Assembly: GCA_051294375.1 (NCBI GenBank)
Contig: CM119265.1
Coordinates: forward strand, 25,947,057 to 26,011,056
Length of the DNA stretch: 64,000 nt
Source of the DNA: Paraspadella gotoi
Lineage: Eukaryota > Animalia > Chaetognatha
Direction: 5' to 3'
Below, piece by piece: positions 17,601-61,594 of this stretch; the first letter of the stretch is position 1; each line of letters opens with the position of its first letter. The notes under the pieces were generated by a model. That model saw nothing but the letters and a program-made list of their open reading frames with translations. It was not told the origin of the DNA and did not search any database. Both the position numbers and the translations under genes were made by a program.

Positions 17601-20600
17601 GCAAGACTCATGTTGCTTAATTCTTGTGCATTTGTTTTTGAAATAAATAAAGCACTTTCAAAGCGTTGAATTGATAATTCAATATATCGTGGAGAAGGTT
17701 TTTTTATTCTCTTCTGCATGTAAGCAAACATTTTTCTATGTTCTACCAAAAGCTTCTTTCCAATAGACGATTTTTGTTTTTCCAAACCAATTTTTCCCTT
17801 TAACATTCGAAAATCAGATGCAAGATTGACTGTTTGAAAAAACTTTAAACTAAATCTAAACTACTTCTATTACCGTGAGATATGCGAGCGATATTACTAA
17901 ATACCGTTTTATATCGATCGAAAATAAATCGAAAATCTCCCAAATTCTTTTTCTCCTAGACATTAAGGCGGGCCAAAATTGAACACTTTTTTAACATCTC
18001 GTTCTCTTAAAATTTTTTTTTCCTTCTGCTTTTAAATCGATTTTCAATTCAACTTTTTAAATTAGTTGAGGCTTTTAAATATTTATTAATAATAATATAT
18101 AACAATGACAAATTAATTTGTTTTAGTTTTATATTTTAAGAACGGTTTCTTATAAAGCTTAAAATGTTAAATAAAAGTTAGTACTATAATTTTTTTAAAT
18201 TTTTATAATAAATTACTTAAAAATAGACAAAACTTCATCATTGACTGAAATTTATAGTTTTTTAAAATTTTTATCAATAAAACAAAAGAAATTTTTAAAA
18301 ATTATAATAATAACCTTTATCATACTTATAAAGCTTTATCAGAATCTATTAAAAAATATAAAAATTAAAATTTTTTAAAACTTTATATAGTAATAAAATA
18401 ATTTTTAAATGCTTCTGTGCGCTTATCTATAATAAATCTTAAAACTATTTTTATTTTTATGTTCTCTAACAGTTACTTTACTATTATCTATTTGAGAAAA
18501 CTTTTAGTTTTCAACTTGTTCCATTCTATAATTTTTTAAAACATTGTTTGCATAATTTAGATGGTAAAAATGTCAATCAGGTCACATAAACGAGCGTGAT
18601 GTGTCATGACATTTAGATTAATAATTTTTAAGTAATATAAAAATATTAATATGGCGTGATGGAACATTATCTTCAAAATACTAAAAACAATTAAAATGTC
18701 CTGAGCAAAGTGAGAATCGCTTACGCGGTTCACGAAATGTGCAAAGTTGAGCGGAACATTAATTATTTAATATTGAAATATTAAAGTTTGCCTTTTCACT
18801 CGCGTCTCTCTTGTAACGGAAACAAACGAAAAACTCCCTTTGATTACTATCTTGGATACCGATACAGTACAAATGATCTTTATTTGGCGCAATAAATAGC
18901 GAAAAAAAAATCAGTTCTGCCGTAACTCGCTCTTTTCATTACATTTCTTACTTTTTTTTTCCGAGTAGTCAGCTAGCCTAAATCCACCAAATATTACAGC
19001 AAACGCTTTCAAGCGATACAATTACCATAAAACGGTATTTTAAAGTTATAATTTTTGGCCAAAATGATGTAAAAATCGACTCAGTAATCTCCTTTTGGTC
19101 TGGCCTAATTTTCCCAGAAAGCCCTATTTATTCTTAAATTCAGAATTAGGTTAATTTTTTAAGTTAAAGATTGGGTTTAAGGTTAAGCTTAGGGATTAGG
19201 TTAAGGGTGAAGCCAGTTATTATGGTTAAGGATTATGTTAGTTATTAGGATTAGGGACTAGGATTTATGGCTAAGGGTTATAGTTATAAATTAGGCAATA
19301 GGGTTTAGGGTTAGGGTTCTGGATTAGGATAGAATTTGAGATTAAGATAAGATATTAAGGTTAGGTTATAATTTGAAGAATATATTTAGGTTAAATACTA
19401 AGGTTAAAATTAAATTCCGGGATAAAGTAACTGAAATAGGGCGCTCTGGGAAAAAGAGAACCCTCCTTTTAACAAATAATACCGAATTCCTTTTTTTTAA
19501 ATGACAAGATCGGTTCATCCAATGTGTTGAGCCGCACTGACTTTAATTTCACGTGTATTTCTCGTGACATGAAATGACATGACGCAACAAGAAATGACTA
19601 CATGATTACAATAATTTTTTTAGCTTATGTATTTTCTAAATTTTTTCTTTTATTCTTAATAGTTTTAGGTTTTCCTGAAGGCGGCGCTAGCAGTCCCTTT
19701 GATTTGAGGTTTTTTCAGTCTTATCAAATGAGCAACTATAGACAAATTATAACGCATTTTTAACATAAGAGGGACACACCGATGGACAGACATACCGACC
19801 GATCGAAAAGCGACTCATAGAGTTGCTCCGCTAGTACTGGCGGCGCAAACTAATTGTGTAATTTGATCACCACCCGCCGCCTTTGGTGCGACTCGGTTTC
19901 TGGCAGAACATCGCGGAGAAAACGGAGAAGAGGAGACCGAAGAGGAAGACGCCCGAGGGGACGATGGCCGGGTGGGCGAAGAAGAAGATGGTCAGGGAAG
20001 AGAACTTGGTAGGTTGAGTCAGAACCACCTTGGGTAAGGAGAGGTGAGGTCATCGATTAAATACCAATTTACGAGTCTATCGAGTGTCTAATTCATAAAT
20101 TTTAAATTCTTTTTTTTTTATTTTGAAAAAATTGTTGGAAAATTATTTTAGCTTTAGAAATAGAAGAAAAAAATTTTTTTTTAAAGATTTTTAAAGTTTT
20201 TTATTAAAAATTAAAAAGGTTTATTAAAATTGAGAGAAAAAGAAATAAAATTAATAAAAAAACTATAATATTTAAAAATTCTAACTTCAGCGTGAGTACA
20301 ATATTTTTTTATATACATTTTTGATATACATAAATCAAACCGAAACTAATTTTGGCTTATTTTTACATTCGCCGACCGGGATTTTGCGCTCGGTTATTTG
20401 TTTTTCGCTTCTTATGTTATGAGCAACATATAGAAATCTCTCTACGGAAAAATAAAAAAAAAGGGTAGAAAACGTTTTATTACAAATTGTATTTCAAAAC
20501 CTCCCCTTACCCTAACTACCCCTAATCCCTAACCACCCCTATCCCTAACCAGTAACCACCCTTAACCCAATTGCTAACCGTTTAAAAATTATAACATTTC

Positions 20601-21154
20601 ATTTCGTTACGTTATTTGTTTGAGGTGGAAAATGAATTGTTTGTTTACATCCGAGTTTTATTAAGAAATATATATTTCGGACATGTTTCGGCTACAATCA
20701 GCGCAAAAACGTATTGATTTGTGAAATAAATATTTTCAAGTTTGAAGAGAGAGAGAGAGTCTGTAAAAATATTTGTTTCACAAATCAATCAACCTGTCCG
20801 AAATTTATGTTTCATTTTCTACCAAAATCATGAAAATAGCAATTAAAATAAATTTAAAACAATTATTATTAATTATAAAATTATAAAATCTGTATTACTG
20901 CACAAAAAAGTGTATATTACTGCGCTGAGACTCGACGCTAGAGGGAAAACAAAATGAAATGGATTAACAAACCACCGACCGCTGGTACCTAAAGTTGGTT
21001 GCGGACGTCGAATAGTAAAGTTACCCCTAATTTTAATGGCTTGTTGATTGCTGTTTTTGATAATGAGAAAAAGGACAATAGACCTTATAATGGGACAGTC
21101 TGCACGAGCCCAGTGACCGTCCACGCTTCTTTTCAGCCAGGCCCGCGGCGTCAC

Positions 21155-21190
<36 letters not shown>

Positions 21191-23856
21191 ACATGACACC
21201 AATGAGGTCAGGATAAATCACGACATCACCTTCGCAAACGTAGCTCCCCTCATGAATCTTAGAGACGTTGCAGATTTGAAGGATGGAGCCGATCCTCCAA
21301 GTCGTCGTCCGCCCGTCGTCAGTCACGCCGTCCTGATTGGATGAGAAGGAGAATGACAAATAGAAACGCTTCAGTGATTAGTGAAGCTAGTAGCAAGTAA
21401 AGTAGCAAGTAAAGCTCGTAGACTTGCAGGGAGGAAGGCCTCAGGCCCCATGCGAACTTAGCCTGTCCAAAGTCAGGATAACTTATTTAAGGAACGACTG
21501 ATTAGTTTTTCCATTGTTTGAACCAATTTCATTAACCGCCCCCTCCACCCCCCCTCCCCTTTTCACCTTGAAACATCTCATGAGGGCGAAGGGGATTTCC
21601 TCAGTGACGTTGGGATTGTTGGCGTTGGCGGCGACGCCTCTCGCGCCGTCGACGCCGCACGCGTAGTAATCGCGCCGCTCCTTCTGCCACGTGATCGTAG
21701 CCGCGCGAAGTTCCGGGAAATAGTCGGCGCGGCAGTCCAGTTGGAACTGCGCCCCCAACTGGCAAAAGGATGTACGAGGATTAAGTGACAGTCCAGTTGG
21801 AACTGCGACTCCAACTCGTAATCAATGATGGTATTAGGATGGCAGGTGGCAAGTGATGTCAAACGGGCAAGTAGCAGTTATATGGACCTGCCAGCCAAGT
21901 AGGGAATCGATTGCTCTTGCAGCTTCACCTTGGTCTTGATCTCGTGCTCGTGTTCCAAGAGATTGTCCACCAACTCCGACTTGACGTCCTCCGGATCCTT
22001 GCAGTTCCTCTCTACGTCGCCGCCAGAGGTCGTCGCCGTCAAAATGGCGACGATCAAGATGGCGGCGATTCGGGCGACGGAGCCACCCTGGGAGTTGCGA
22101 GGCCCAAAAATGAGGAAGAAATACAACTAAAGTCTTGAGCTTATTTTCTCTCGTTTTTAGGTTAGGTATTAGGTTAAGCTTTCGGTTAGTAATGAGGGTT
22201 AGGTTTAACGGTTAGGGGTTACGGGTTAGTGTTTGATATAAGGAATTAGAGTTTAAGGTTCGATAAAGGACTAGGCTAGGGTTAAGGATTAGTCCAGGAA
22301 TTAAAAAAAACAGAAATGTGGCGATTATGAAAAAGAGAAAAGACTTTTTGATAGGACAGTCGGTAAATCTGTAAAATTACTTAGAAATGTTTGTAAATTA
22401 ATACAGGAACATTGAATAAAAGAATTAATAAAAATAACAATTTTTATTTTACCTCGTGGAAGGGCGAGGGTGGCGCCCGTCGTCTCATGTTATGTTTTTT
22501 TTTTAGTTTTCTTTTTTTTCTTTTTGCTTTGGTTTCCGGAGATGGAACGCGCGATCCGGGTCGTGAGTCAGAGGTGAAGGGGGGAAGGGACGAGACCAGG
22601 TCGGGGGTGGGGGCGAGAGGGAGAAAGGGGTTGTGGGGTTGAGAATTAGGGTCGAGGGGGGGAGGGTTTTGTGGTGGATGGGGCGGCGATCCTCGGTGGT
22701 AGAAAGGAGACTCGGTCACGTACGTACGGGCGGCGTGTAAACGGGTGAGTGCAAACGACGTGCGAACGGCTGCGTGCAAACGTGGCTCGCACGAGAAGAC
22801 GTAGTTAAATATTATTTAAAAATTAATTTAAAAGATCAGAAATTGAAGCTAGAAAACTAAACCAGGAGAACAGGTAAATTTTTTTTCTCGCTTTTGTTTG
22901 TTTATTTTTTTCTTCGTCCAAAAAATCGATTTTTTTTTCATCCGCGGGAAAAAGTGACAGGGAAGAGAGAGAGAGAGAGAGAAAGAGAGAGTCAACTTTA
23001 ATTCCAACTCCGAAAAAAGCAACAACGTCGATGAAAGGCAAACGCTAAAAATGCTCAGGTGAACTGGGAAGAAAAGGAGACCGAGTGATTGATTCCTCGC
23101 TTCAAGTTGTTATGGTTTCCTCTCATCCAAGTTTATATTAATTTTCAATTGTTTTATTTATCCCTTTGGGCACTCGTTTCGTTAGCTTTTCGTTTTGTTT
23201 CGTAGCGATTTGATGAATTAATTTGGTTTAGTTTCGTTTTATAGTATATAAACTATATATACTAAAATTTCGATTACCGTTTTCTCTTCCATATTCAGAC
23301 TGTGATCAAGAAAGGCACGGGTCATGAGTGTCGTTGTCGTTTTGTTTCCTAGTCAATGTTTCGTTTTGAGGCGAGAAAACAAAACGAAGAATCTCAAAAA
23401 AAAAAAAGAAAAAAGCTGAAGAAAAGAAGGAAGAAGCGAAGGTGAGTGAAGGCGGGCGAAGTTTAGACGATAAATGTTTACCTGAAATGGAGAAAGGTAA
23501 TCATTTTTATTAACTAAAATAGGCTATAAATATGTAATAAAACGTTCGCGAATTTCCCGTATCTCTGGTAGGACTCTTTGAAGACGGGTTATAATGATAA
23601 AAATCGGTGATGACACTAATGAGTGATGACTGATGCCACAGTTGACAACCGTAAAATCAGATTTGATAAATTTTTTTTGACGAAAAAAGAAAGTATTGAC
23701 TGCTGATTATCTGTCGGGTGGATAACATGCATGTAAGGCAAAAAAATATAAATATATTGTCCACCTCGAATTACAACAGAATACAAAAAGTGTCTGATAA
23801 GTCATGTTACTACTACTATTTCTAATCTCTCCTTCTCTCGGTCTCTTTCTTCTTCT

Positions 23857-23925
<69 letters not shown>

Positions 23926-25361
23926 CTCTCCACTCGTACTACAATCGCATCGCTGCTTTTTCTCTTCTCCCTCATTCTGGTGCGGTGCAATTGAAGAGAA
24001 CAAATACATCCACAAGGCTGCAACCCCAAGCGTTCCAAAGCACTTGTACCAATCTACTATTTATTAAATCTGACAGTCAAGAACCCTCGCACTCGAAATT
24101 TTCAAAGAAGAGAAGAAAAATGAAGATCCGACGCCAACTGAAACAATAAGAAACATGCAATGCCGTTGCCGACCTTTTAAATATAACCATCTGAAAAAAA
24201 AGGGACTACGACGACGACGACGACGACGACGACGCATCCTTGGCGGGCGACGATGACGAAGAGATCGATTGATACTTAGTTAACAATTGATAGCAATAAA
24301 TTGACAATTGATAGCAANNNNNNNNNNNNNNNNNNNNNNNNNNNNNNNNNNNNNNNNNNNNNNNNNNNNNNNNNNNNNNNNNNNNNNNNNNNNNNNNNNN
24401 NNNNNNNNNNNNNNNNNNNNNNNNNNNNNNNNNNNNNNNNNNNNNNNNNNNNNNNNNNNNNNNNNNNNNNNNNNNNNNNNNNNNNNNNNNNNNNNNNNNN
24501 NNNNNNNNNNNNNNNNNNNNNNNNNNNNNNNNNNNNNNNNNNNNNNNNNNNNNNNNNNNNNNNNNNNNNNNNNNNNNNNNNNNNNNNNNNNNNNNNNNNN
24601 NNNNNNNNNNNNNNNNNNNNNNNNNNNNNNNNNNNNNNNNNNNNNNNNNNNNNNNNNNNNNNNNNNNNNNNNNNNNNNNNNNNNNNNNNNNNNNNNNNNN
24701 NNNNNNNNNNNNNNNNNNNNNNNNNNNNNNNNNNNNNNNNNNNNNNNNNNNNNNNNNNNNNNNNNNNNNNNNNNNNNNNCAATTATTAAGCTAATATTTA
24801 ATAATTATAAAAACGGTAGATAAATCAAAACTGTTCTAAGAAAAATAAGATGTCTGTCAATGAAAAAATTATGATTTTTAGGTGATTTGTATATTTTTTT
24901 AAAACTAATTTATAAGTACATCATTTAAAACTAAAAAAAAAACTGAAAAAAATGACTATACATTGTACAATGCCCCATACCCAATTAGTCTTTTCCCACC
25001 CAGGCGACAGCGTGACTTAAAAGCGAATCTGAAAGATAACGAAGACTCGCGAAAGAAAAAGAAAAAAAAAAGGAAANNNNNNNNNNNNNNNNNNNNNNNN
25101 NNNNNNNNNNNNNNNNNNNNNNNNNNNNNNNNNNNNNNNNNNNNNNNNNNNNNNNNNNNNNNNNNNNNNNNNNNNNNNNNNNNNNNNNNNNNNNNNNNNN
25201 NNNNNNNNNNNNNNNNNNNNNNNNNNNNNNNNNNNNNNNNNNNNNNNNNNNNNNNNNNNNNNNNNNNNNNNNNNNNNNNNNNNNNNNNNNNNNNNNNNNN
25301 NNNNNNNNNNNNNNNNNNNNNNNNNNNNNNNNNNNNNNNNNNNNNNNNNNNNNNNNNNNNN

Positions 25362-40346: not shown

Positions 40347-42778
40347 AAGAGAGAGAGATTACAGAACAATACAACGTCGAACAATAAATACAAAAGGAAC
40401 AAAAGAGAAACAAAATCAACCGACGTTCACGCTACTTATTGTGAGACTCACCCGACCACCCCTCTTCACTCACCCACCCCTTCACCTTAGATCACCAATC
40501 TTTTTCACCCTTACCTCCCCCCTTCCCCCCTCACTCTCTCACATCCATCCGTGCGCCGAAACTCCTCCGTTGGCGGACAGGGAGCGCCCCCGTTTCGCGG
40601 CCGGATGTAGACGACGCGCGTGCGACGTTGGACGCTCGTTAGCCCGTCGGGCACGCCCCAAGCCCCCCAGGGGCTGTAGACGCATCCGAAAGATCTAAAA
40701 TGGGAAGGATGTTACAGGGAGAAAGGGTTTTCAACGGATTATCGAATATTTTACTGTAGCTCTGTTTCACTAATAAGATAATCTTTGTGCAGAATAATGA
40801 TGTGTCATAAACATTAAACAGTGTAAGAAAACATTTAGCTGGGGCCTGTCTCGATCTATATTGAGTTCATCATCGAGAAAAAGTAGAATCGTAAAAGTAA
40901 ATAAAAAAATAAATAAATAAATAAATAAATAAATTTAAACCTTGCCTGTTTATCGTGGGCAGATTAAACCACGAGTTAACCTTCGGCAGAAAATTTAAAA
41001 TCGTCACGAGAAAAGCAAGAAGGATGACGCGCGAAACCGAGACTCGTCGCGCCCTCCAGCGGCTAAATGGAAAATTACGAAAGAACAAGTTTGAGCAAAC
41101 AGTTTGATCTGCACGCGGGCATTTAGCGGTAAGAAGCGAATCAGATGATAAGTTATGATTAATCTTGGAATTTATTTTTTGATTTAAGACAAATTACCGT
41201 CAATGTTTATTATTCATAATTTTTTGGAGTCTGATCTGCTTATCAGAAGATTCCGACTCTATAATTCTTTGTCGGTCCGTCGGTCCCACCCCTAAATCTT
41301 GTCGGTAAATAATTTTTAGCATATTAGAACATCATATTATGCTATATTAAGAAAAAAAAATAAAAAACGATGTCCGTCCGTCCGTTCGTCCGTTCGTCTG
41401 TCTGACGGTCCGTCCCCCCTTAGCAACTAACTCAAATTACTCGTGATTGGATGAATGGATTGGAATGAAATTTTGTGTGTGGTTAGGAAAGTGTATGATT
41501 GAGCTGGATATAAGGTTTCGATGGAATCGTGCGGGTGGAAATGAGTTTAAATGGAAAAAAACATAAGTCACTTTTATTTGAATCTTTTTAATAATTTTAA
41601 TCCATAATTAATCGATTTATTCATTATTAGATGGATAGAATGGGATTAAATTTTGTGTGTGGGTAGGAAAGTAATTAGCATTAGTAATTCATTAATAATA
41701 GCAATGGCAATACATTAGTATTTAGTATTGAGTAATTAGCGTTCAAATATCAGGGGAGAAGAACGGACAGACATACAGACAGACAGACAGACGGACGGAC
41801 GGATAATTTATCATAATTTGATGTTTAAAGATGATGTAAGTGATTTACCGACATGATTGTGGGGCGGACCGATGGACCGACCAAGTGAATTGTAGAGCCG
41901 GAATCTGCTGTAAGCATAACCGGCTGAAAACAAACGGTTATTCCAGGGACTTAAGACAAATAATCAAAGAAAAGTAAAAACGTACTTCGTCGGGAAGTGT
42001 AATGTTTGGAGAGCTCAATGTTAAATAGATTTATGTTTCAACTACGTAAATACAAATAACGTTGCCCCTTCATTTTTTTTAAACAAAAAAGTAAACTTAT
42101 AATAGGTCAGGTAAAAAATAGGAAAAAACATCGAAAATGAGTGACAATTAGTTAAACTTTAAGACGTATAAAATATTGAAAAAATACGTAATGGAAAAAA
42201 GACAAAATTAAAAGAGTGTGGAGTGAATGTACAGTTTAAACTTCCGATTTAATTTATGTCATGTTGTTTTCTGAAGAATTACAAACAAATTTGGTTTTAA
42301 TCTTTAAGGTTTCTACGTGGTATTCGTTATTTCCTTTTTGATTAAAAAAACCAAGTTTAAGATAACTTCCTCAAAACTTTTAAGAATATTTAAACAGTGA
42401 ACAATTAACCGGAAAATGTTGTTCCGCCTCCGGAAGAGGGCGGGAAGAAAAGTGACGCAAATCTGACATTAAACAAAAGACTAAATGAAAGTGAAGTTTT
42501 AGTTTGAACATTAAACAGACTAAATTAAATACGAAAAAAAAAATTGAGAGAGAGTTGACTCACCCTTTGGTTTGATCATCGAATTCACAAAGAAGGAATG
42601 AGAGACATTCGTGGCTTTTAGTGTCATGGCTTTCGGAGCGACTTTTGGAGCGGCTTTTAAAGCTGCTTCTTTTATGGCAGAATTTAGCGTCAGGATTAAC
42701 TTTTTGGGCTTTTGTTTTGATTTCGAGTGGATTCCCAACTCTTGTGGGCGTCATTGACGAAGATTTTATATATTTCAT
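14645..42778 (-). CDS. Thrombospondin type-1 repeat + von Willebrand factor A domain protein, 9 exons, ~391 aa
   Basis: Exons (minus) 42778-42564 (least certain), 41062-40973, 40694-40543, 39519-39385, 16366-16197, 15774-15669, 15349-15278, 15138-14999, 14740-14645; phases consistent (1176 nt). Hydrophobic VILLAFLVTILNFL; TSR GCVYSPWGAW...QRRTRVV..RPRNGGAPCP; vWA PRDILFLVDMS|GSL...RVALVTFD...ATCTGDAL...DVLVLTDGLSN with all MIDAS residues. Confidence 0.75.
17092..17240. repeat. Inverted repeat enclosing a degenerate hammerhead motif
   Basis: Arms TTACAAAAAACGATTTTATTTGTACATAT / ATATACAAATAAAATCGTTGTTTGTAA flank minus-strand CT(-)ATGA-T-GGCTC-GAAAATA-GAGTC-GAAA-CATG-TT (17180-17147). Confidence 0.55.
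19109..19455. mobile_element. TIR-bounded element filled with degenerate TTAGGG-like repeats
   Basis: TTTTCCCAGAAAGCCCTATTT and AAATAGGGCGCTCTGGGAAAA are inverted; the interior is a degenerate (TTAGGG/TTAAGG)n tract. Confidence 0.6.
19505..19852 (-). mobile_element. Helentron-associated (HINE/DINE-1-like) non-autonomous element
   Basis: On minus begins TTAGTTTGCG...GCAACTCTATGAGTCGC, followed by a GTCC/GTCT-type tract, and ends ...ATCTTGT; same layout as the family at 25.5, 41.2 and 46.5 kb. Confidence 0.45.
19867..22488 (-). CDS. Single immunoglobulin-domain type I membrane protein, 6 exons, ~241 aa
   Basis: Exons (minus) 22488-22453, 22087-21929, 21758-21567, 21332-21230, 21157-21084, 20028-19867 (726 nt, phases consistent). 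Signal peptide IAAILIVAILTATTSG; Ig motifs LGAQFQLDC, ITWQKE, SILQICNV..IHEGSYVC; TM AIVPSGVFLFGLLFSVFSAMFC; short tail QKPSRTKGGGW*. Confidence 0.75.
20354..21027. mobile_element. Composite non-autonomous element, copy 2 (homologous to 5580-6229)
   Basis: Same termini, CCCTAA-like tract and GGACATGTTTCGGCT...GCGCAAAAACG block; hammerhead parts carry deletions. Confidence 0.75.
25501..25914 (+). mobile_element. Helentron-associated (HINE/DINE-1-like) element
   Basis: 5' TTAGTCGGATCT..AGATTCCGACTCTATAATTCAC..TGTCGG and 3' CGTGGGCAGATCCGACA..TTTGCTCAATCTTGTT, shared with 46451-47122; T-rich flanks. Confidence 0.6.
34580..34790. repeat. Degenerate ~24-bp tandem repeat (GTGATGGCATCAAAGATGGCATAA-like)
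   Basis: Recurrent TCAAAGATGGC/GTGATGG units at ~24-bp spacing. Confidence 0.6.
34968..35440. mobile_element. Tc1/mariner-like MITE
   Basis: TA-CACACCTGTGCAAATAAA ... TTTTTTTGCACAGGACTG-TA: inverted termini with TA flanks. Confidence 0.65.
39530..39665. repeat. 24-bp minisatellite (GGAGAAATGAATGTAAGAATGAAA)n
   Basis: About 5.5 tandem units adjacent to a minus-strand splice acceptor. Confidence 0.85.
41228..41925. mobile_element. Two HINE/DINE-1-like copies in inverted orientation
   Basis: Forward head ATCTGCTTATCAGAAGATTCCGACTCTATAATTC + (GTCC)n at 41232-41420; reverse head (CAGA/CGGA)n...GAATTGTAGAGCCGGAATCTGCTGTAAGCA at 41760-41918. Confidence 0.65.
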
Positions 42779-45449: not shown

Positions 45450-48400
45450 CGATCCATCTCACCCCTCACAATTTCAGATACGAAGATAATCCTGAAACTC
45501 AAGCCAAAGTGGAGAGAGCGTATTTGGAAGGCTACACCTCGAGATTGATGCAAGGATATCAGGAGGCGACGAAGAAGCCGGCGGGAAGAAGATGTCAGTG
45601 AAGCGTGAGACAACAATAGTTCAGACGAAAGACAACAGACAACAGCAAACACATCTAATAAAAGGAAAAACAACACACAACAGCAAAGATAACAGACAAC
45701 AGCAAACACATCTGATGAAGGCAAAAACAACACACAACAGCAAAGTCAACACACAACAGCAAAGATAACAGACAACAGCAAACACATCTGATAAAAGGAA
45801 AAAACAACACACAACAGCAAAAACAACACACAACAACAAAGATAACAGACAACAGCAAACACATCTGATAAAGACAACACAACACCCAACAGCAAAGAGA
45901 CAAAGACACAGCTGCTTCTTCTTCATCTGATTCCCCCCCCCCTCCTCCCTCTTTTCCCCCACACTCCCTCCAGTCCTCGAGTGGTTCCTCGGCTGCCTTT
46001 TCTTCATCTGGTTCCTCGATTTCGCCTTCGAAGTCGCGAAAGAAGTGAAGCGAATCAAAGATGATCAAGGCGGGAAGGATGGCGCCGCCGGATCGAACTC
46101 GGCGGATAACACGACGAAGGTAAGGGCTGGTAAGGCGCTGCTTTTGATAAGTTGATATGATTGATTTGATTCGATTTGATTGGATCGCGTTGGATTTATT
46201 GGATTTGACTCAATTCGATTAAATTTGATTTCATTGGGTTTTATATTATTTGATTTGATTTGGTTGGATTGATTTGTTTTGATTGGGTTGGATAATTGGA
46301 TTGATTGTGTTGGATTCAGTTAATTTGAATAGGTCGAATTGATTTTATTGACTTGAATTCGATTAGATTTTTGATTTGATTTGCTTTGGGTTGGATTGAG
46401 TTAATTTGATTGGATTTGACTTAATTTGATATAATTGACAGAATTAATTTTTAATCGGATCTGCTTATCAGCAGATCCCGACTCTATAATTCACTTTTGT
46501 CGGTCCTCAATCTTGTCGGACATTCACTTATATCATGTCAGAACATCGAATTATGATAAAATTGTTGTCTCTCCGTCTGTCTGTCTCTCTGTCTGTCTGT
46601 CTGTCCTGTCGTCAAAAAACACCAATTACTTGTGATTAGATGGATGAATTTGGAATGAAATTTTGTGTGTGGGTAGAGAGTGTGTGATTGAGCTGGATAT
46701 GAAGTTTCGATGGAATCGTTGAGTGAAAATCAGTTTAAATGGAAAAAACAAAAAATATATTTCACTATTTGAACACCAATTACTCATGTTTGGATGAGGC
46801 GATTGATCTGAAATTTTTTATGTGGGTAGGAAAGTGTGTGATTAAGCTGGAAATCAAGTTTCGATGGAATAGTTTGTGTGGAAATGAGTTTAAATGAAAA
46901 AAAACTAAAAAACCTGTTTTTTCTTTTTATATTAAATGTAAATGCAAGATGTATTCATTAATCATTTAATTATTCAGTTTAATTAATAAATTAGTCTATT
47001 AATTAATAATAATTAATTAATCAGTCAATTAAACAATCAAAAACAAATTTCGATCAAATCAATTAAAATTAATTACCGATAATCATCGTGGGCGGAGTCC
47101 GACATGTTTGCTCAAACTTGTTTTACTTACTTTCCATTCTTGAAATCTTTTCCTTCCTTCCTCGCTTCAAAATTTTATTCCTTCTTTTCCTTTCCTCCTT
47201 CCTCTTTTCTTCCTCCTTTCCTCCTCCACCCCTCCTTTCCTTCCAAAGCCCAAGAACGACGAATTCCGCGGGGCCGGATCAAACATCTTCCATGAAAGTA
47301 GATCTCGACAATAAAGAAAGCGAATCCAGAGACATCAAAGTCAGATTCGCCGACGTCAGAGGTCAATGACAGAAACAGCGAGAGTCCGGGAAGAACCTTG
47401 GCTTCCTTCGCATTTTAGAGCTCCGAAAACGCGTGATTTCAAAGATAAAAACTTTTCCAGTAACGCTTTTCTTTTTCTAAGCTTACTTTTCTATAACGTC
47501 CCGTCCCGACGGATAGACAAATAGAAAAGTAGATAATCTAGATAATCTTAATAATCTTGAATAATCTTAATCATTTTTTTTATAATCAAAACGTCTCAGT
47601 ACCAGAGGATGAATCCTCAGAATGCCCCCCCAATCCAACCCCCCTTCCTGCTTCCCCCCTCTCCGATCCTCCCCCCCGCCAAAGGTGTCGACGAAGGCGA
47701 AGGAAGAGCTCGAGTTTCATCGTCGACTCCTCCGCGATCCCGAGAGGTTCTCCCGTTTGGGCGGAACTCTTCCGAAGGGGTGCTTGCTCATCGAAATCCT
47801 GGGGTCGGGAAGACTCTCTGGCCAGAGCCGTTTGCAGGTGAAAAAAAAAAATCGGGAGAAGAGGGGGGGGCTTTATTTAGGGGGGGGTAGTGGTTTATTT
47901 CTTTCACGTCGCTTGTTTTGCGTTGCCTTTTCTTTCCCAAATCCAAGGCGAGGCGGGCGTTCCTTTTTTCCACGCCTCCGGTTCAGAGTTTGACGAAGTC
48001 TACGTGGGCATGGGCGCACGGCGCATGCGCCAACTATTCGCGGCGGCGAAGGCGAATCAACCCTGCGTCCTTTTTATAGACGAGATCGATTCTTGCGGCG
48101 CCAAAAGAATATGTAGGATTGTGGTGGGCGACATTGATGAAGTCTGTTGATCATTTGTTTAATCTGAAGGAGGTCATTGGTAGGAATATTATTATCATTA
48201 TTTGTCCAATAAAATTAATTAGTCTAACAACTCCGTCTATTGGCTGGAACTATAATAGTGAATCTACACAACCCCAGCCTCCCAGATGCACCCTTTCGCC
48301 AATCACACCGTCAACCAGATGCTGACAGAGATGGACGGCTTCACCAAAAACTCGGGGGTCATCGTCTTGGGCGCCACCAACCGGAAGGAGAATCTGGACG

Positions 48401-51400
48401 AGGCGTTGCTGCGGCCGGGGAGGTTCGATGTGGAGGTGAGGATTAAGATAATGTGATGATGATGAAGACGTCGTTTATGCGACTAAAAGTTCATTAAGTC
48501 GTCGGGCATTGCTTAAGTTCACCCCGCCTATTTGTATGACACCTTCAGTCGTGATCCGGTGGCCCGTTGAGTAAAGCCATCAGCTCATGACCACTAGGTA
48601 CCGGGTTCAACCCCACGTCGGGCTCACCAGTTTGGATAAGGTGCTAAGGTGGCTGAAGATGACTATCCGCAACTGCTTTAACCCCTCTCGCAGCTGTGGA
48701 ACAGATCCTGGGCTTGGAACCAGGCTCCTGGGTTTTCCACGCCCCAAGGCCGTCTTCATGTTTCCTGCAGGGTAGGTATCGAGTTCTGATTGAACCCGGT
48801 ACCTAGTGGTCATGAGCTGATGGCTTCACTCAATGAGCCACCGGGTCATGCTTATAGGCGAGATGTACTTATGCAATGCCCGACTACGATTCCATCAATC
48901 CAATCTATCCATCTACCCAATCCATCTCATATGGATACTTTCTATCCATCTACCCAATCCATCTCATATGGATACTTTCTATCCATCTATCCAATCCATT
49001 CCCTACCCAAGGTCCAGGTCAATCTTCCCGACGCCAAAGGCCGCGAGGAGATTCTCCAATTTTACTTGGAGAAAGTGAAGGTGGAACCGGAAGTCGATGT
49101 GTCGAACGTCGCCAAATCGACGCCGGGATTCAGCGGCGCCGACTTGGAAAACCTCGTCAATCAGGTGGCAGTTCTAGGGACGGCGTTGATGCTAAAATGT
49201 AGTAATCGAGAACCTCGGGGCGCCATGGGTCGTTTTGGGTATGAGCTTGTTTGGTTCTGATTCTTTTGTATTGTTTATTTCTCCTTCTGTCGGCTTTGGG
49301 TTACGTTTTTGGATTACCTGCTTTTAAATATTTTTTAAACTAAAAACTATCGTTTATTAATTTTTAGAATCTCGCAAGATTCCTTGTTCGACTGTATTAG
49401 ATTGAATTAGACTAAATTTTAAAATGAATATAAATTGATAATTTTTTGCTTTTTAAATGAATTCGTCTCACGAATTCACACCAGGCGGCCGTTCACGCGG
49501 CCAAAGAGAAACACGTAGGAATCACCAAGGCGGATATTGGTGAGAAGAGTTGAGATGAAGAGTTGAGATGAAGAGTTGAGAAAAAAAGTTGAGATGACCC
49601 CAGACGGCCAGACGGCATCAGACTTACAATTATTACCGGTTGGGATGACCCAGATTAACAAAATGTTTGCCTCTACTCATTATAATAATAGCCTTAATAG
49701 GTAATAGTAATTGTCACTCGAATTCATTTTTCTCGACGTTGCTTGATAGAATGGGCCAAGGACAAAATAATCATGGGGCCGGAGAAAAAGGGAAAGATCA
49801 TGGACAAAGAAACATTGAGGAACACGGCGTATCACGAGGCCGGACACACGGTTGTCGCCTACTTCACTCAGGTATCTTTGAAAGTCAGGCAACAAAAATA
49901 AAAACAAAACAAAAAAACAAAAGGTAGCTTTTACTCATTCAGTCGTGGTTTTTTATAAAATTGCTACAACCAATATAAAAAAATATCCATTGGTTTAATA
50001 AATAAGCTATCTTGCCGCTAACCTTAAACAAGCTTTGGTGCATTAAGGTCATTGTTTTGCCTCCATATCTTTTTTTTTATCCTTCTCTTTCTAAGCCTAT
50101 TTCATTGGAGCTACATACAAAAAATACGTGATTTAAACATTGAAAGCTTTGTATGATACTCAATTACTCATTCGTTTCTAAGCTGACCTTTTTGAAAACA
50201 GAAACAGAAAACAGAAAACCGAAAACCCATCCCACCCCACAACCCCCTCGAAACCGTCTCGCCCTCCACCTCCAGCACAGCTTCCCGATCCACAAAGTGA
50301 CCATCATCCCGCGCGGCCAATCCCTCGGCCACACCTCATTCATCCCTTCCTCCGAGACGGACCTCACCAAGAAGCAGCTGGAGGCGCAGCTCGACGTAGC
50401 GATGGGCGGACGCATTGGGGAACACATCCTCGATGGAGAGAAGGGCGTTCCCAAGGGGGTCACCACTGGAGCCAGCGCTGACTTCTCGGTGAGCGGAAAT
50501 GTTGAGAAGGGGAAGGGGAGAAAAGATATGAAAAAGGAAAGGAAAGGAAAGGAAAGGAAAGGAAAGAAAGGAAATGAAAGAAAAGAAAAGGAAAGAAAAC
50601 AAGGAAAGGAAAGGAAAGGAAGAAGAAAAAAGGAAAGGAAAGGAAAAAATGAAAGAAAAGAAAAGGAAAGAAAACAAGGAAAGGAAAGAAAGGAAAGGAA
50701 AGTAGAGGAACGGAAATTGAAGGAAAGGAAAGGAAAGGAAATAAAAAGGAAAGAAAAGAAGAAAGGAAAGGAAAGGAAAGGAAAGAAAAGGAAAGGAAAG
50801 AAAAAAGGAAAGGAAAGGAAAAGAAAGGAAATGAAAGAAAAGAAAAGGAAAGAAAAAAGGTAAGGAAAGGAAAGGAAAGTAGAGGAACGGAAATGGAAGG
50901 AAAGGAAAGAAAAAAGGTAAGGAAAGGAAAGGAAAGGAAAAGTAGAGGAACGGAAATGGGAAGGAAAGGAAAGGAAAGGAAATAAAAAAGGAAAGAAAAG
51001 GAAAGGAAAGGAAAGGAAAGGAAAGGAAAGGAAAGGAATGGAAAGAAAAGGATAAAGAAAAAAATTAATTATTGGTAAATAAAATTAAATCTTAATGAAA
51101 AAATTAAGTAATTTTTTTTTATTTGTAATAGATTTTGATACTTAGCTTTTTTATCAATAACAACTGGATCATGTGTGAAAAAAAATTTTTCAACCTACCT
51201 CCTACCTCCCACCGCCACCTCTCATTTCTTCTCTCCAATCCCATCTATTCTCTCCCATCCCATCTCTTCTTTCCCATCTCTGATGCCATCTATCTCCCAT
51301 CTCTTCTCTCCCATCTCCCATCCGATCTCTTCTTTCCCATCTCTGATCCCATCTCCCATCATTTCTCTCAGAGCGCCACCAACCTGGCGATTTCCATGGT

Positions 51401-51509
51401 GACGCGCTACGGGATGTCGCCTCCAGTCGGGATGAGAGTCTTCGACCCAGATATGAAGGATGTCAGCAACGTCACCAAGAAGCTCGTCGACGGAGAGATT
51501 AAACGGTGC

Positions 51510-51554
<45 letters not shown>

Positions 51555-53658
51555 TTTATCTCTCTCCTTTTCTCTCTTTATTTAAAATGAAAAAGTAATT
51601 TGCATATTGTAGTGTGACTTTTATACAATCGTTTATTTCAAAGACAAAAAATAATACACTACATTATTTTTCTTAAAAATGTTTTTTTCATTAAGTTTTT
51701 TTTTATGTATATGATAAATTTAATGTATTTTATTTTTCCCATAACACCCCATCCTTCCCCCCCCCTTCTAGCCTCCTCGACGAATCCTTCGCCCGCGCCA
51801 ACAAACTACTCTCCCTCCACGCCTCCGCCCACCGTTCCCTCGCCGAGGCGCTGATCTCGAGAGAGACTCTCTCGCTGAAGGAGATCGAGGATATTCTCGG
51901 GCCTCGAGGAGAAGCGGGGGATGAGGCGAAGACGAAAGCGAGGAAGGAGGAGGTAGAGGGAGGGAGGGAGGGAGGGAGAAGGGAGGAGAGGGAGAGGAGA
52001 TAGAAGGATGAGGGAGGGAGGGAGAGGGGAAGAGGAAGAGGAGGAAGGTGGAGGGAGGGAGAGGGGAAGAGAAAGAAGGATGAGGGAGGGAGAGAGGGAG
52101 GGAGAGGGGAAGAGGAAGAGGAGGTAGAGAGGGAGGGAGGGATGATACCAATTCGCCTGCAATTTCAAAGCCAATTCCTCTCCCACTCTCTCTCTCTTCC
52201 TCTTATCTTCCAATCCTCCAATGACAGACTAAACCCCAAGCCACCGTCACCGCCGCCACCGCCGCCACCGCCCCCGCCACTGCCGCCACTGCCGCCACAA
52301 CTTCCGCCGCCGTCGCCGCCATTACGACCAAATTGATGGGCGTCGAGGAAAAAGTCGAAGACGTCGACGACATTTTCCAAGACGACAACGACAACCCCTT
52401 CAACAACGACTCTGGCGCTGAAAAAGACGAAGATGGCGACGCGGCGCCGTTGACGGGGAGCTGGAGTGACGACAGTTCGGACGGAGACGTCGGGGCGCCG
52501 CTGACGAGGGGTTGGAGCGACATCTTCAAAGTTAGTCTTGACCGCAACCCAGTCATCGATGAAGCTTGTTCGGATGTCGGCACTGGGGCATGTCGGAACG
52601 ACGCCAAATTCGACTCGGGTCTTATTAGTGACGCAACGCCGGTTACTGGACATTGGAACGACGCCATCAACGCCGGTCTCAACCGCAACGCCGGGTCACC
52701 ATTGACGCCACGTTGGAGCGATGACATTTTTAAAGAAGACGCGGCGCCGTCTATGGGAAATTGGAGTAACGCTGTCGACGCCGGTTCTGAATGCGACGCC
52801 GGGGCAACACCGACGAGGCGTTGGATCGTCGACGGCGACAAATCTGAAGTTGATAAATTTTGGAGCTTTTCGACGGAACGAGTCGAGATAGAGGCGTCGG
52901 TCGGTCGGTCGGAGTTGGAGAAGAATCTTGGCGATGCGGATGGAGACCGTCTTGAAGGATCTGCGATGGAGAATCGGAGAATCGAAGACCAAGACTTGAA
53001 CCCTACGTATTTAGGTTTGGACTCAAATTTAAACTTAGATTTAAATTCAAATTAGGAAATATATTGAAACTTGGATTTAGTCTTAAACTTTGATTTTTTA
53101 GGTTCAAACTCGGCTTTAGAAGCGAAAGGATCGAAGGATACTTCGCTAAAGACGGAATGCGCTGAAGAGACGATCTCCGAAAACTCGGAAAAGATTGAGG
53201 ATGAGAAAAGTGTTGAGGAACCGACGAAGATCCGTTGGATGTTTGAAGAAGATCCAGGAGAAGGTCGCGAGTTCGAGACGGACGCGTCCAGGTTGTTGAA
53301 GGTCGACGTTGACGACTGCGTCGAAGCTGGGGCCTCTGGAGACGCGAGAGACTTTGGCCTTGAAATAAAAGCGGGAGACGGAGGGGAAGGTCCCGAAATG
53401 GACCGACCGACCGATTTAACGGACGGAAAGATCAGTTTGACGAACGGACCAGAGAGTTCGACAGACGGACCGACCGGTTTGACCGACAGACCGACCAGTT
53501 TGACCAACGCCGGAGACTCTCAGAATTCCAAGGGGACGTTGGCCGAAGAGTCGGGCCGACGCTCGACGTGCGACTGCGGGAAGGATGATTGCGAGTGGAC
53601 GTCGACGAAAAGAGTCAAGTCGAACAAAAGAACATCGTGGTTCAACTTTTTTAAATGA
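45119..53658 (+). CDS. YME1L1: Mitochondrial ATP-dependent zinc metalloprotease YME1L (FtsH/i-AAA), with apparent frameshifts in exons 4-5 and a putative long acidic C-terminal extension
   Basis: Exons 45119-45369, 45478-45593, 45974-46119, 47249-47361, 47685-47837, 47948-48112, 48278-48435, 49012-49164, 49485-49539, 49750-49871, 50276-50488, 51372-51505, 51772-51952, then putatively 52228-53014 and 53102-53658. Presequence-like [55 protein letters not shown], Walker [51 protein letters not shown] zinc motif, [10 protein letters not shown]. Confidence 0.9.
45620..45900. repeat. Degenerate CA-rich minisatellite in YME1L intron 2
   Basis: Repeated CAACAGCAAAGATAACAGACAACAGCAAACACATCTGATAAA units; source of spurious Cys/Val-rich minus ORFs. 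Confidence 0.8.
46451..47122 (+). mobile_element. Helentron-associated (HINE/DINE-1-like) element with internal tandem repeat
   Basis: Head TTAATCGGATCTGCTTATCAGCAGATCCCGACTCTATAATTCAC, (GTCT)n tract, two ~150-bp internal repeats, tail CGTGGGCGGAGTCCGACATGTTTGCTCAAACTTGTT. Confidence 0.7.
48552..48848. mobile_element. Element bounded by inverted tRNA-derived (SINE-like) heads in YME1L intron 7
   Basis: Arms 48552-48610 and 48790-48848 are near-perfect inverted repeats with A-box-like TGGC(T/C)C.TTGAG and B-box GGTTCAA; the left arm continues CCCCACGTCGGGCTCACCA, resembling the tRNA-Lys 3' end plus CCA. Confidence 0.6.
50530..51060. repeat. (GGAAA)n simple repeat
   Basis: Degenerate pentanucleotide array in YME1L intron 11. 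Confidence 0.9.
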
Positions 53659-57713: not shown

Positions 57714-60700
57714 AGAAGAGAGAGAGAAAAGAGAATGCTTTCAATCTCCAATTTCACCTGCAATTTCTCTCTGGTGAGATTGGCAGCATCCTCTTCGAGA
57801 TTCTCCGCCTGGATGATCCTTCACCGTCGACGACCGATTGCAGGGAGGTCACGTGACGGTCAACCATCTCCATCAGTTTCTTCACGGCGAGACGGACCTG
57901 GGGGGGGGTGAGGGGATTGGGGCGGTGGAAAGCAAAGAGCTTAATTTGAGGAAGTTTTGACTTTGACTATAGCAACAAGGAAAGCCTGAAGGCTCTGAAC
58001 GTCATTTTTATATGTCTCACAAAACCTTTCAATTTCACCGATTTATAATTTATTTTTCACTATTGAAACAAACTAGATGCAGTGATGCGAGCCAATAAAT
58101 GTCAACTTTCATCTTGAAAATATCAACGCGGTCATAAGGTGAGCCTCAAGTATGTAAAGGATGCAAATTGATTTATAAGCTCATTTTAACAATTGCAACA
58201 ACCCCAGTGCAGTTCCACTTTACCTGCTGCACCGCGTAATCAATCTGCTCGTTTTGAGCAGACGACAAAACTGAATCTCGTCGCTCGACCGACTTTTCGA
58301 AGATCTTGTCGGTGGAAGTCGTCGAGACGGGAGAGATGACCATCAACGCCTCTGGGGGTGGTGCTGGGAATGCCGGTTGGCGGGGTGGTGAAGTGTGGGG
58401 TGGATTGGCGAAGGGGGGAAAGTGAAAGAGAAATGACGGTTAGAAAAACAAACGGACAATTTAGCTGCAGAAAAAGAATTCGTTTTATTGTTCTTAGCAT
58501 GAGAGAGAGAGAGAGAGAGAAAGAGAGATAGAGAGAGAGAGAGTTTAAAATCAAATTTCGTGATTTAATTCTTGGGATTAGATTGGATTTTCTTCTCCCT
58601 GGAGAAGAAAACAATTTTATTGAAATTTTCTTTTTTTCTTTTTTTTCCGTTTTGGCCAAAGATTCTCTGTGGGAGGCGTTTGAGGAAACACATTTCCAGA
58701 TACAACTTTTTAAAACCTCAATCGTGACAATGAGTCTCAATAACTAAGCAAACTCGAAAAGTCTATGAAAATCGTAAAAAAAACAAATATTTCGGGGGGA
58801 TTTCCTTGTATTAAACCGAAGAGAATAAAAACAACGAGAAAGATTTTTTACAGCGAAGTTCGATTCAAAATATGTCGTCTTGAAAACTCCTCGCGCTCCA
58901 TCCAACCCAACGTCCGTCGCCGGCCGCTGACCGATATTCGAGCAGCCCGTCGGCTTTGACTTTTTAGCCCGATTTTGCCGGTCTGCGTCGGTCCCTTCCG
59001 CTCTGCCCGTCGGCCCGTGCCTTCGCCCGTGTTCCCCTTTGCTCTTTTGCCCGCTCCGTCCATTTATCGTCGTGGAGGAGGGACGCCTCTTCGAGCGCTG
59101 AACCAAAAAAAAAAAATAATAATAACATTAATTATTATCTATTGGTTAATTTGTTAAGCAACCAAAGAATCGTTACTCACGCCGAGGTGGCCGAATTGGC
59201 CGAGGAAACGCTGGGCGTGGCTCGCGCCGGCGGCGGAAGCGAACTCGGCGGTCGACGCGGCGGAAAGACGTCGCTGCTCTCGTCTTCGAAATTGCCGTTG
59301 GCGTTTTCTTCCGACAAGGTGGCCGAAGTCTCTCGGTTGGCGTTGGTGCTGGGAGTGACAGACTCTTCTTTGTTGGCGTTCTCTTCGTCGCCACCCGGTT
59401 CTGCCTTCGCCGCTGTCGGGGAGAAAAAAAAAGGGGGGGGAAATCATTATTCGTCGTCGTCGTCGTCGTCGTCTTTCTCGTTTACCTCCGCCTTTCCTCG
59501 GCGGGCCTTCGTCGAACGGGTCGCCCTCGTAGGCCTTCAACGCGTTTATCACTGAAATAAAATAGAAACCATTTTAGTCGTTCGTTCGTTCGTTGGTTCG
59601 TTCGTTCGTTCGTTCGTTCGTTCATTAGTTAGTTGGTTGTTTCGTTTCTTTCCTCAACCACTCACCGACTCTGCAATAAAGCGTGTTCCAATATCCAAAG
59701 GCGCAAAGAATCCATTTGTGGAAAAGTTTGTCGTCTTTCTTGCATTCGGTCTTCCAATAATTCATCAGGTCTTGTGCCGTTTTGATCTTCCTGCGGGGGG
59801 GGGGGCATCGAGCGGGACAAAATATCTCAAGACAACGAATGGAAAAAAGGTGCGCATTGAACCCTTTCTTCCTCAGCCCCATCACGTACCTGCTGCACAT
59901 TTGCCTGGCCAGTGTGGGACCAATGCCAGGAACAACTGTCGTTGGGCATTTGTTGAGTTCTTTCTTGAGGAAGGCCTCCCACTTCTTTGAGCCGGGGCCG
60001 ACCTGGGAGGCCGAGTTAAAGAGGATCAGTAACATACAATGCTCGATCGGGGACGAATTGAACTTACGATGTGCGGGGGACCCTTGACGTGGGAGTCTAT
60101 TGGAGGATGAGCTTTCTCCCATTCGTTAAAAGCGTTGATTACTGTACGAAAAATTGGAAGAAAAGAACTTAGGATTTGCCGTCACTTAAGTTTTAAGTTA
60201 ACGACTAATTTCTACAGGTTTTAAGTACCACAGCCCCTCCGTACATCTTTTGTCCTTCCCTTCCCCCGCTCCCTAATCTCTCCCTCCCTCTCTCTCTCTT
60301 TCTCTCTCACTGGTCTTAGCGTAGAGCCGGTTCCACGGCCCGAACTTGCAAGCCAACCATTTTGCGAATCGATCGTCCTTCTGCTTTTTCCACTGATCGT
60401 ACAGATGCGAGGCTCTAGTGAACTTCTCGCGTTTTAAAAAGTAGCTGAGAAAAAATCCGCATCCCGGTACTGCGTCCACGGGCAACGCGTAAAGGTTGTC
60501 GCACGCCTGCCAGTTCTCGAACTTTTTCGTCTTCAGCAACGCCTCTGTTCCGAGGTAAGGAGGACAATGGGGTAAGTTAATCCGAGACGACGAAAAAGGA
60601 CCAAGCTGAAAACTTACCTTCTTTCTTTTTCCCCCCGCCTTCTTCCCCCATGTTGGCGGTTGGTTGGAAAAAAAAAAAACAAATACAAAAATAAAATAAA

Positions 60701-61594
60701 AAACAAAAAAACAAAAAAAAAAAAAAGGGAAAAAAGAAAAAAAAAGGGAGAAAACGCCGACGGGTAAAGGGGAAATGTAAGAGGAGAATCTGCGTTGTTT
60801 GTTTATCGACGAAAAACTTTTCGTCGCGTTAGTCTGTATGTTTAGATTAAGCGACGCGAACGATGTATGTTGAGAAGAGCGAATATTAACGAATGACGGA
60901 GAAAATCGAGGCCGAAAATATTTATTAATATTTAATCGTGAGTTTAAAAAAAAAGTTTGAAGTAAAATCGCAGAATGTAAGGCTTTTTCTCGCTAACCAG
61001 AATTTGGTTTTCTATCTAGTTACAACTACGATGTTTCTTTTTTTAAAAAAATTATTTTTTTAAATCAATTTTTAATAAATTCCTCCAACAAAATCTATAA
61101 ACTTTTTTGGCGCTCTGATAGGTAAAGCGAGGGCTGTATCCCTTCCACGAACCGATCAATCAATCCCCACCCACATCCCTCAGCAAACGCCACCTTCTTT
61201 GAACAACTCCCCTCTCTCATCTGCACCCTTCTCCTCAGGGCCTCACCCGACGAGCCGTTGGAGGCGCCGCCCGGAGTGGAAGAGAGAGAGGCTTCCGAGG
61301 CGAGTCTCGATGCTTCGTCGGGATTCGTGGATGAGGATGCGAGGAGGCGGTTGACTCCCTTGACGATCATCTCCGCGCAGCGTTTGAGGCGCCGGATGTC
61401 GCTGTCGTCGCCTGAATGCAATCAGTGAATGAGGAGGGGGGGGGAGATGACGAAGGTTAATTATTTTATTATTTTTGTTGTTGTTTTTTTGATTGGTGAT
61501 GGGGAAATACACGAGGTAATTGCTTGGTTGAGTGATTTCAAAGGAGGGTATACTGGGCAAAATAATATAAATTTCTATCTTTCTTTCTTTGTTT

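Follow-up and report, generated by a model that had tools for sequence, protein, structure and literature searches.

The window that we analysed, a stretch of 64,000 nucleotides from the arrow worm Paraspadella gotoi (contig CM119265.1), carries on its minus strand a gene of eight exons (60651-59064), whose open frame of 303 amino acids encodes two BAF-type domains in a single chain. Canonical BAF (BANF1) is a single domain of 89 amino acids and is regarded as an obligate homodimer, the dimer face of which serves in DNA bridging, LEM-protein binding and lamin binding. All seven introns of the tandem-BAF gene are of the GT-AG type and between 65 and 169 nt long. The parts of the gene and the two encoded domains are arranged as follows:

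60618..60651, minus strand: coding part of exon 1, with the ATG at 60651 and a Lys-rich N-terminus
60311..60544, minus strand: exon 2, the bulk of BAF-type domain 1, with the helix-hairpin-helix PGCG
60142..60310, minus strand: intron 2, phase 1, matching intron 5 in its place within the domain
60068..60141, minus strand: exon 3, the final helix of domain 1 and the linker
59890..60002, minus strand: exon 4, the first half of domain 2, with the equivalents of Ser4 and Lys6 and the helix-hairpin-helix PGIG
59666..59790, minus strand: exon 5, the second half of domain 2
59552..59665, minus strand: intron 5, phase 1, equivalent to intron 2 through the duplication
59486..59551, minus strand: exon 6, the final helix of domain 2 and the start of the tail
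59181..59412, minus strand: exon 7, the tail, acidic and then rich in Pro, Ser and Arg, without a Pfam match
59064..59097, minus strand: coding part of exon 8, with the stop codon at 59066-59064
58790..59063, minus strand: 3' UTR, with AATACA at 58812-58807 and the poly(A) joined at about 58790
60116..60542, minus strand: BAF-type domain 1, residues 13-98, across intron 2 (family profile E 5e-40)
59526..59999, minus strand: BAF-type domain 2, residues 116-202, across introns 4 and 5 (family profile E 1e-37)

Transcript evidence from five public runs out of four studies (X1-X5; RNA is on record for X2, the others are presumed to be RNA) confirmed that the tandem-BAF gene is real, spliced and transcribed. 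A single X1 contig of 1232 nt comprises all eight exons in order with nothing in between and thus places both domains on one transcript, as an earlier note on this sequence had assumed. Exons 1-7 are likewise contained in a single X2 contig, and X4 and X5 contribute small parts of the gene only. Splice joints were seen directly for four of the seven introns and deduced from contiguous contig coordinates for the other three; at introns 2 and 7, loose ends in X3 match the next exon, and a bin lying wholly inside intron 2 had zero cover in four of four runs. Intron 4, which is open over its 99 nt, was considered as coding sequence and ruled out, being skipped in X1, X2 and X3. The poly(A) site follows about 20 nt past AATACA, with poly-T loose ends in X4 and X5. 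At the other end, the 5' UTR of the transcripts is colinear with the genome up to at least 60666, and a trans-spliced leader, which was sought in these transcripts, was not seen. Just ahead of the start codon lies a long tract that is rich in T and free of AG (60655-60790, minus strand); the transcripts extend into it, and it may represent an unusual U-rich 5' UTR.

The next gene lies about 430 nt past the tandem-BAF poly(A) site. In X3, a single contig connects 22 nt of the tandem-BAF 3' UTR with an exon of this next gene through a GT-AG junction (58363-58222, then 57895-57758; region 58363-58852, minus strand); with a short side of only 22 nt, this join possibly reflects read-through splicing or the true first exon of the next gene. 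X3 contig depth was 20,000-25,000 on the tandem-BAF gene versus 63 on the next gene, figures by which the expression of the two genes cannot be ranked. Upstream, a further minus-strand frame is open at 61098-61421, without a Pfam match, and its end is some 450 nt away from the start codon; with neighbours this close on both sides, the packing of the genes is tight and operon-like. Farther off, the plus strand encodes a YME1L/FtsH-like AAA protease (47250-51900; Pfam AAA, AAA lid and M41), with an apparent frame break near 47790 that may be an assembly error. In a tree that used 26 of 92 hits, with no named arrow-worm sequence among them, the YME1L-like protein groups on a long branch with six unnamed proteins (75-76% identity, support 100), compared with 50-61% identity to named annelids, nemerteans, molluscs, nematodes and an insect, a placement that would suit an isolated phylum of animals. 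Further minus-strand exons, at 16173-16436 and 40514-40711, code for a von Willebrand A domain and a spondin-like TSP1 domain. Neither a second tandem copy nor a separate canonical BAF was detected within the window in a six-frame profile scan.

The two domains of the window protein are 37% identical and align with a score of 147, where the best of 2000 shuffles reached 64. Introns 2 and 5 interrupt the codons of residues 90 and 194, which are equivalent places in the two domains, and together with the shuffle-tested alignment these matching phase-1 introns bear out the internal duplication that the earlier note had proposed. Its residue assignments also hold in our alignment: K6, P19, G25, G27, A42, F59 and W62 occur in both domains, and positions 43/47/50/51 read S/D/K/K in domain 1 and Q/N/K/T in domain 2. 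Throughout, BAF numbering is that of the human protein, taken from a PDB alignment for positions 1-64 and mapped end to end for 69-89; the labels W84 and Q73 likewise refer to human BAF. Two further descriptions need to be narrowed. The motif FGxWNxLY is indeed shared by both domains of the window protein, but its family-wide form is [FL]GxWNxxY, in which the L is not kept. Similarly, the succession of an acidic and a Pro/Arg-rich tail part applies to the window protein (61 residues with 16 D/E versus 5 K/R, then 40 residues with 11 Pro, 7 K/R and no D/E; net charge -4), whereas the tails of its relatives are acidic throughout.

The window gene product is a BAF-domain protein, not canonical BAF. 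Taken singly, its exons match PF02961 alone, plus a weak HHH below cut-off, and with 17 and 16.7 bits they stay under the PF02961 cut-off of 25 (exon 2, E 0.008). The two Pfam hits that had been anticipated were obtained as two stretches in each of four full-length relatives (51.5-52.6 bits), and PF02961 is part of the precomputed annotation of all 36 relatives described below. A family profile searched against the PDB retrieved BAF chains only (7 sequences, best E 0.0013). With exon 2 alone, neither the search of solved structures found a match nor the word search any longer relatives, and its single-sequence model was poor (pLDDT 54) and uninformative in a fold search, where nothing exceeded Z 4.4. 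For the relative P0072, AlphaFold (43 alignment rows) predicted two confident domains, both near pLDDT 90, joined by a disordered linker and followed by a tail, both below pLDDT 50. The packing of the domains, for which the earlier note had suggested this modelling, is thus addressed in a relative and with a pTM of 0.40, a value that is also lowered by the 60-residue disordered tail and the shallow alignment of 43 rows. The model of P0072 domain 2 superimposes on human BAF with Z 14.2 and an rmsd of 1.8 A, 88 of 88 residues being aligned (Foldseek TM 0.88), with a range of Z 13.8-14.8 and rmsd 1.6-2.0 A across BAF structures, and the next family follows at Z 6.6. Domain 1 of P0072, which was modelled confidently and shows an identical pattern of helices, was assigned to BAF without a separate structural match; it is taken to be BAF-type because of its Pfam annotation, the cross-match between the two domain profiles (E 1e-16) and the similarity of a relative's domain 1 to BAF clusters in the Atlas (0.92-0.93). 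Small unnamed Atlas clusters of 79 and 111 amino acids, which score 0.91-0.93 against the domains and carry viral or oomycete labels (taxa from 4 records each), are hinting at further divergent BAF-like proteins.

The earlier note treated the gene as a one-off, a view that our searches overturn, since it belongs to a family that is conserved but has no name. Searching exhaustively with exon 2 yielded 21 hits, among them four long proteins of repetitive sequence, which were judged to be chance matches and set aside. A profile built from four full-length relatives led to 36 clusters at 90% identity from MERC (a marine transcript catalogue), JGI and Logan, so that the search for other multi-BAF proteins proposed in that note proved productive: both domains are whole in 35 of the 36 relatives, and one is cut short. 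None of the 36 clusters has a protein name, and neither do the members inspected in ten of them. No related loci were found in JGI metagenome contigs or in viral contigs. The relatives share 42-53% identity with the window protein across the two domains and follow a common layout of two BAF-type domains, both net basic (+2 to +9), a basic linker of 19-31 amino acids and an acidic tail of 55-180 amino acids. Seven short relatives and P0156 leave the alignment exactly at the intron 2 point, with the Gly expected from read-through into a phase-1 GT intron, and intron 2 is therefore likely common to the family. P0012 and P0020 have a single domain of the first-domain type and may be paralogs or faulty predictions; P0020 stops right after the domain, as canonical BAF does, yet without Gly47. 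P0022 is another single-domain relative of the first-domain type.

In a tree of 19 proteins, first domains and second domains formed two groups with support 100, with about 65% identity within each group and about 32% between them. The duplication predates the spread of the family, and the sequences support an old internal duplication as the origin of the two domains. This long separation could also mean that the domains have become specialised, with one binding DNA and the other, together with the acidic tail, binding histones or another protein, as an abundant nucleosome-associated or histone-storage factor. The strong conservation of each separate domain group would suit such a division of labour, as would the Gly-to-Ala exchange at position 27 of domain 2, the private aromatic and Cys residues of domain 1 and the tails, which in 32 of 35 relatives carry a net charge of -10 or below, with a median of -25. 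A precedent is given by BAF-L, a vertebrate paralog with weak DNA binding that has been linked to sperm chromatin remodelling (review PMC13443024). We nevertheless consider this explanation unlikely, as K6, G25, N70 and the Ser/Thr at position 4 are kept in both domains and the tail of the window protein has a net charge of merely -4.

The retained residues are mainly those of the DNA side. K6, N70 and R75 are located on the DNA face of BAF (PMC8606531), and phosphorylation of S4 frees BAF from DNA (PMC11811190). K6 and G25 are present in both domains of all 36 relatives and N70 in 35 of 36, and position 4, which corresponds to the VRK1 site, is occupied in all 36 by Ser in domain 2 and by Thr or Ser in domain 1. 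Other positions are kept unevenly: G27 is Gly in domain 1 of 36/36 relatives, but Ala in domain 2 of 33/36 (Gly in the window protein), and a K or R at position 75 occurs in domain 2 of 29/36, but in domain 1 of only 4/36, where Asn prevails (24/36). P19 is found in domain 2 of 8/36 relatives only, and W62 in domain 1 of none.

The opposite applies to the dimer face, the centre of which is Gly47 (PMC6212729). Gly47 is absent from either domain in all 36 relatives, where position 47 is D or E in domain 1 (31/36) and D in domain 2 (35/36). Position 44 is never hydrophobic and always polar, position 50 is mostly K and position 51 mostly K or G. Judged from these substitutions, the canonical helix-3 dimer face is lost, and the remodelling of the dimer interface that had been read from the window protein extends to the whole family. 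The groove for LEM proteins, which contacts them across the dimer through F39, Q48, V51, L52, L58 and W62 (PMC6212729), is affected as well: contacts 51, 52 and 58 are replaced in nearly all relatives, with position 52 polar in both domains of 36/36 and position 58 mostly not Leu. The lamin tail domain is also bound by the BAF dimer (PMC6212729). Among its Ig-fold contacts, which we scored as A12, P14 and F88, position 14 is D or N, position 12 is Ala in about a third of the relatives and position 88, as numbered by end-to-end mapping, is never Phe. By the same sequence comparison, the LEM-binding groove and the lamin contacts are lost.

Release from the nuclear envelope through the loss of these contact residues could have turned the protein into a cytoplasmic binder of foreign DNA, with an antiviral or anti-transposon function, as an offshoot of the role of BAF against viral DNA, which BAF has been found to bind in the cytoplasm (PMC5638020). 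This seems very improbable to us: the high and even conservation of about 65% per domain and the one copy in the window suit a housekeeping function better than an arms race, and the Lys-rich stretches could serve as nuclear signals.

A set of residues private to the family, C26, F28, C65, W69 and Y73, is invariant or nearly so, and several positions on the old dimer face are fixed in a new form, namely Q44 (36/36) and D47 (35/36) in domain 2 and Y46 and W84 (both 36/36) in domain 1. The private residues and the kept residues of the old face may form a new contact surface. Invariant cysteines are found at positions 26 and 65 of domain 1 and position 65 of domain 2, and a further Cys of domain 2 lies in its inserted loop in 34/36 relatives. 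Through a new interface of this kind, the two domains could pack as a rigid pseudo-dimer, or the protein could dimerise. This would explain why polar and aromatic residues are conserved at or close to the old face (Q44, D47 and Q48 in domain 2; S43, Y46 and W84 in domain 1) and why the linker is confined to 19-31 amino acids. However, two Asp residues would then confront each other in the middle of a BAF-like interface, the P0072 model has a low-confidence linker besides its pTM of 0.40, and in a reduced set of 13 sequences the candidate positions are mostly at or below the median conservation of the domain, which makes a fixed new interface quite improbable.

On balance we lean, if only slightly, towards a mechanism in which a pair of monomer-type BAF domains, held together in cis by a tether, bridges DNA with no need to dimerise. 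Each domain would grip the backbone of double-stranded DNA non-specifically as a monomer, and since each domain is likely monomeric, it would fall to the flexible basic linker, in place of a dimer interface, to bridge or loop two segments of DNA. The model of P0072, in which no fixed packing between the domains is predicted, is consistent with a replacement of dimerisation by tethering. VRK1-type phosphorylation of the kept Ser/Thr4 would release the protein from DNA, and the acidic tail could damp DNA binding, by analogy with HMGB1. Tandem BAF would be nuclear, yet would dock neither on LEM proteins nor on lamin. Given Ala27 in domain 2 and the Asn at the Arg75 position in domain 1, DNA binding may be weak in one of the domains or in both. 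Against tethered bridging speaks the lower DNA avidity of monomeric BAF (G47E) (PMC5638020).

The tandem BAF of an arrow worm ties in with a loss reported for this phylum, as arrow-worm lamins lack the lamin tail domain according to a figure legend (PMC10125929). Arrow worms could have rebuilt the link between chromatin and nuclear envelope: their lamins lost the tail that BAF binds, and a tethered double BAF that only bridges DNA replaced canonical BAF. We regard this replacement as doubtful. If it were true, nature would have shown that one nucleus can be built by bridging only, with dimerisation, LEM binding and lamin binding all dispensable. In human cells, the formation of a single nucleus requires DNA bridging by BAF and not LEM binding (PMC5638020), and the tethering role of BAF is likely restricted to animals (PMC5630835). 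BAF is not mentioned in the main text or in three supplement files of the arrow-worm genome paper (PMC12460157), whose further gene tables could bear on this. A described tandem BAF was not found in the literature searched, a body from which subscription journals were mostly absent, and the accessible part of the review PMC13443024 covers only the BAF homodimer and BAF-L.

Among known systems, BAF/BANF1 itself (PF02961 SAM_BAF; PDB 1CI4, 6GHD, 7ABM, 9J8M) matches domain 2 of the relative in fold and shares with tandem BAF the helix-hairpin-helix, K6, N70 and the position of the Ser4 phospho-site. It differs in that tandem BAF has two domains per chain, a basic linker and a tail of 55-180 amino acids, lacks Gly47, has other residues in nearly all relatives where BAF contacts LEM proteins (51, 52, 58) and lamin (14, 88), and possesses the private [FL]GxWNxxY motif and invariant cysteines. 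In HMGB1-type proteins, two tandem non-specific DNA-binding domains are likewise combined with a basic linker and an acidic tail, but the HMG box is an unrelated fold, and the likeness concerns the layout only. BAF-L/BANF2 of vertebrates is also a divergent BAF paralog with altered DNA binding (PMC13443024). Unlike tandem BAF, with its two domains and no canonical dimer face, BAF-L consists of a single domain and heterodimerises with BAF. The engineered human BAF G47E resembles the tandem-BAF family in its acidic residue at the centre of the dimer face; it is a monomer with weaker DNA binding, which neither binds LEM proteins nor bridges DNA, whereas tandem BAF has two such domains in each chain (PMC5638020). 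A natural family with a G47E-like change in two tethered domains separates the bridging, LEM and lamin jobs of BAF, and it raises the direct question whether a tethered pair of monomers can rescue the loss of BAF.
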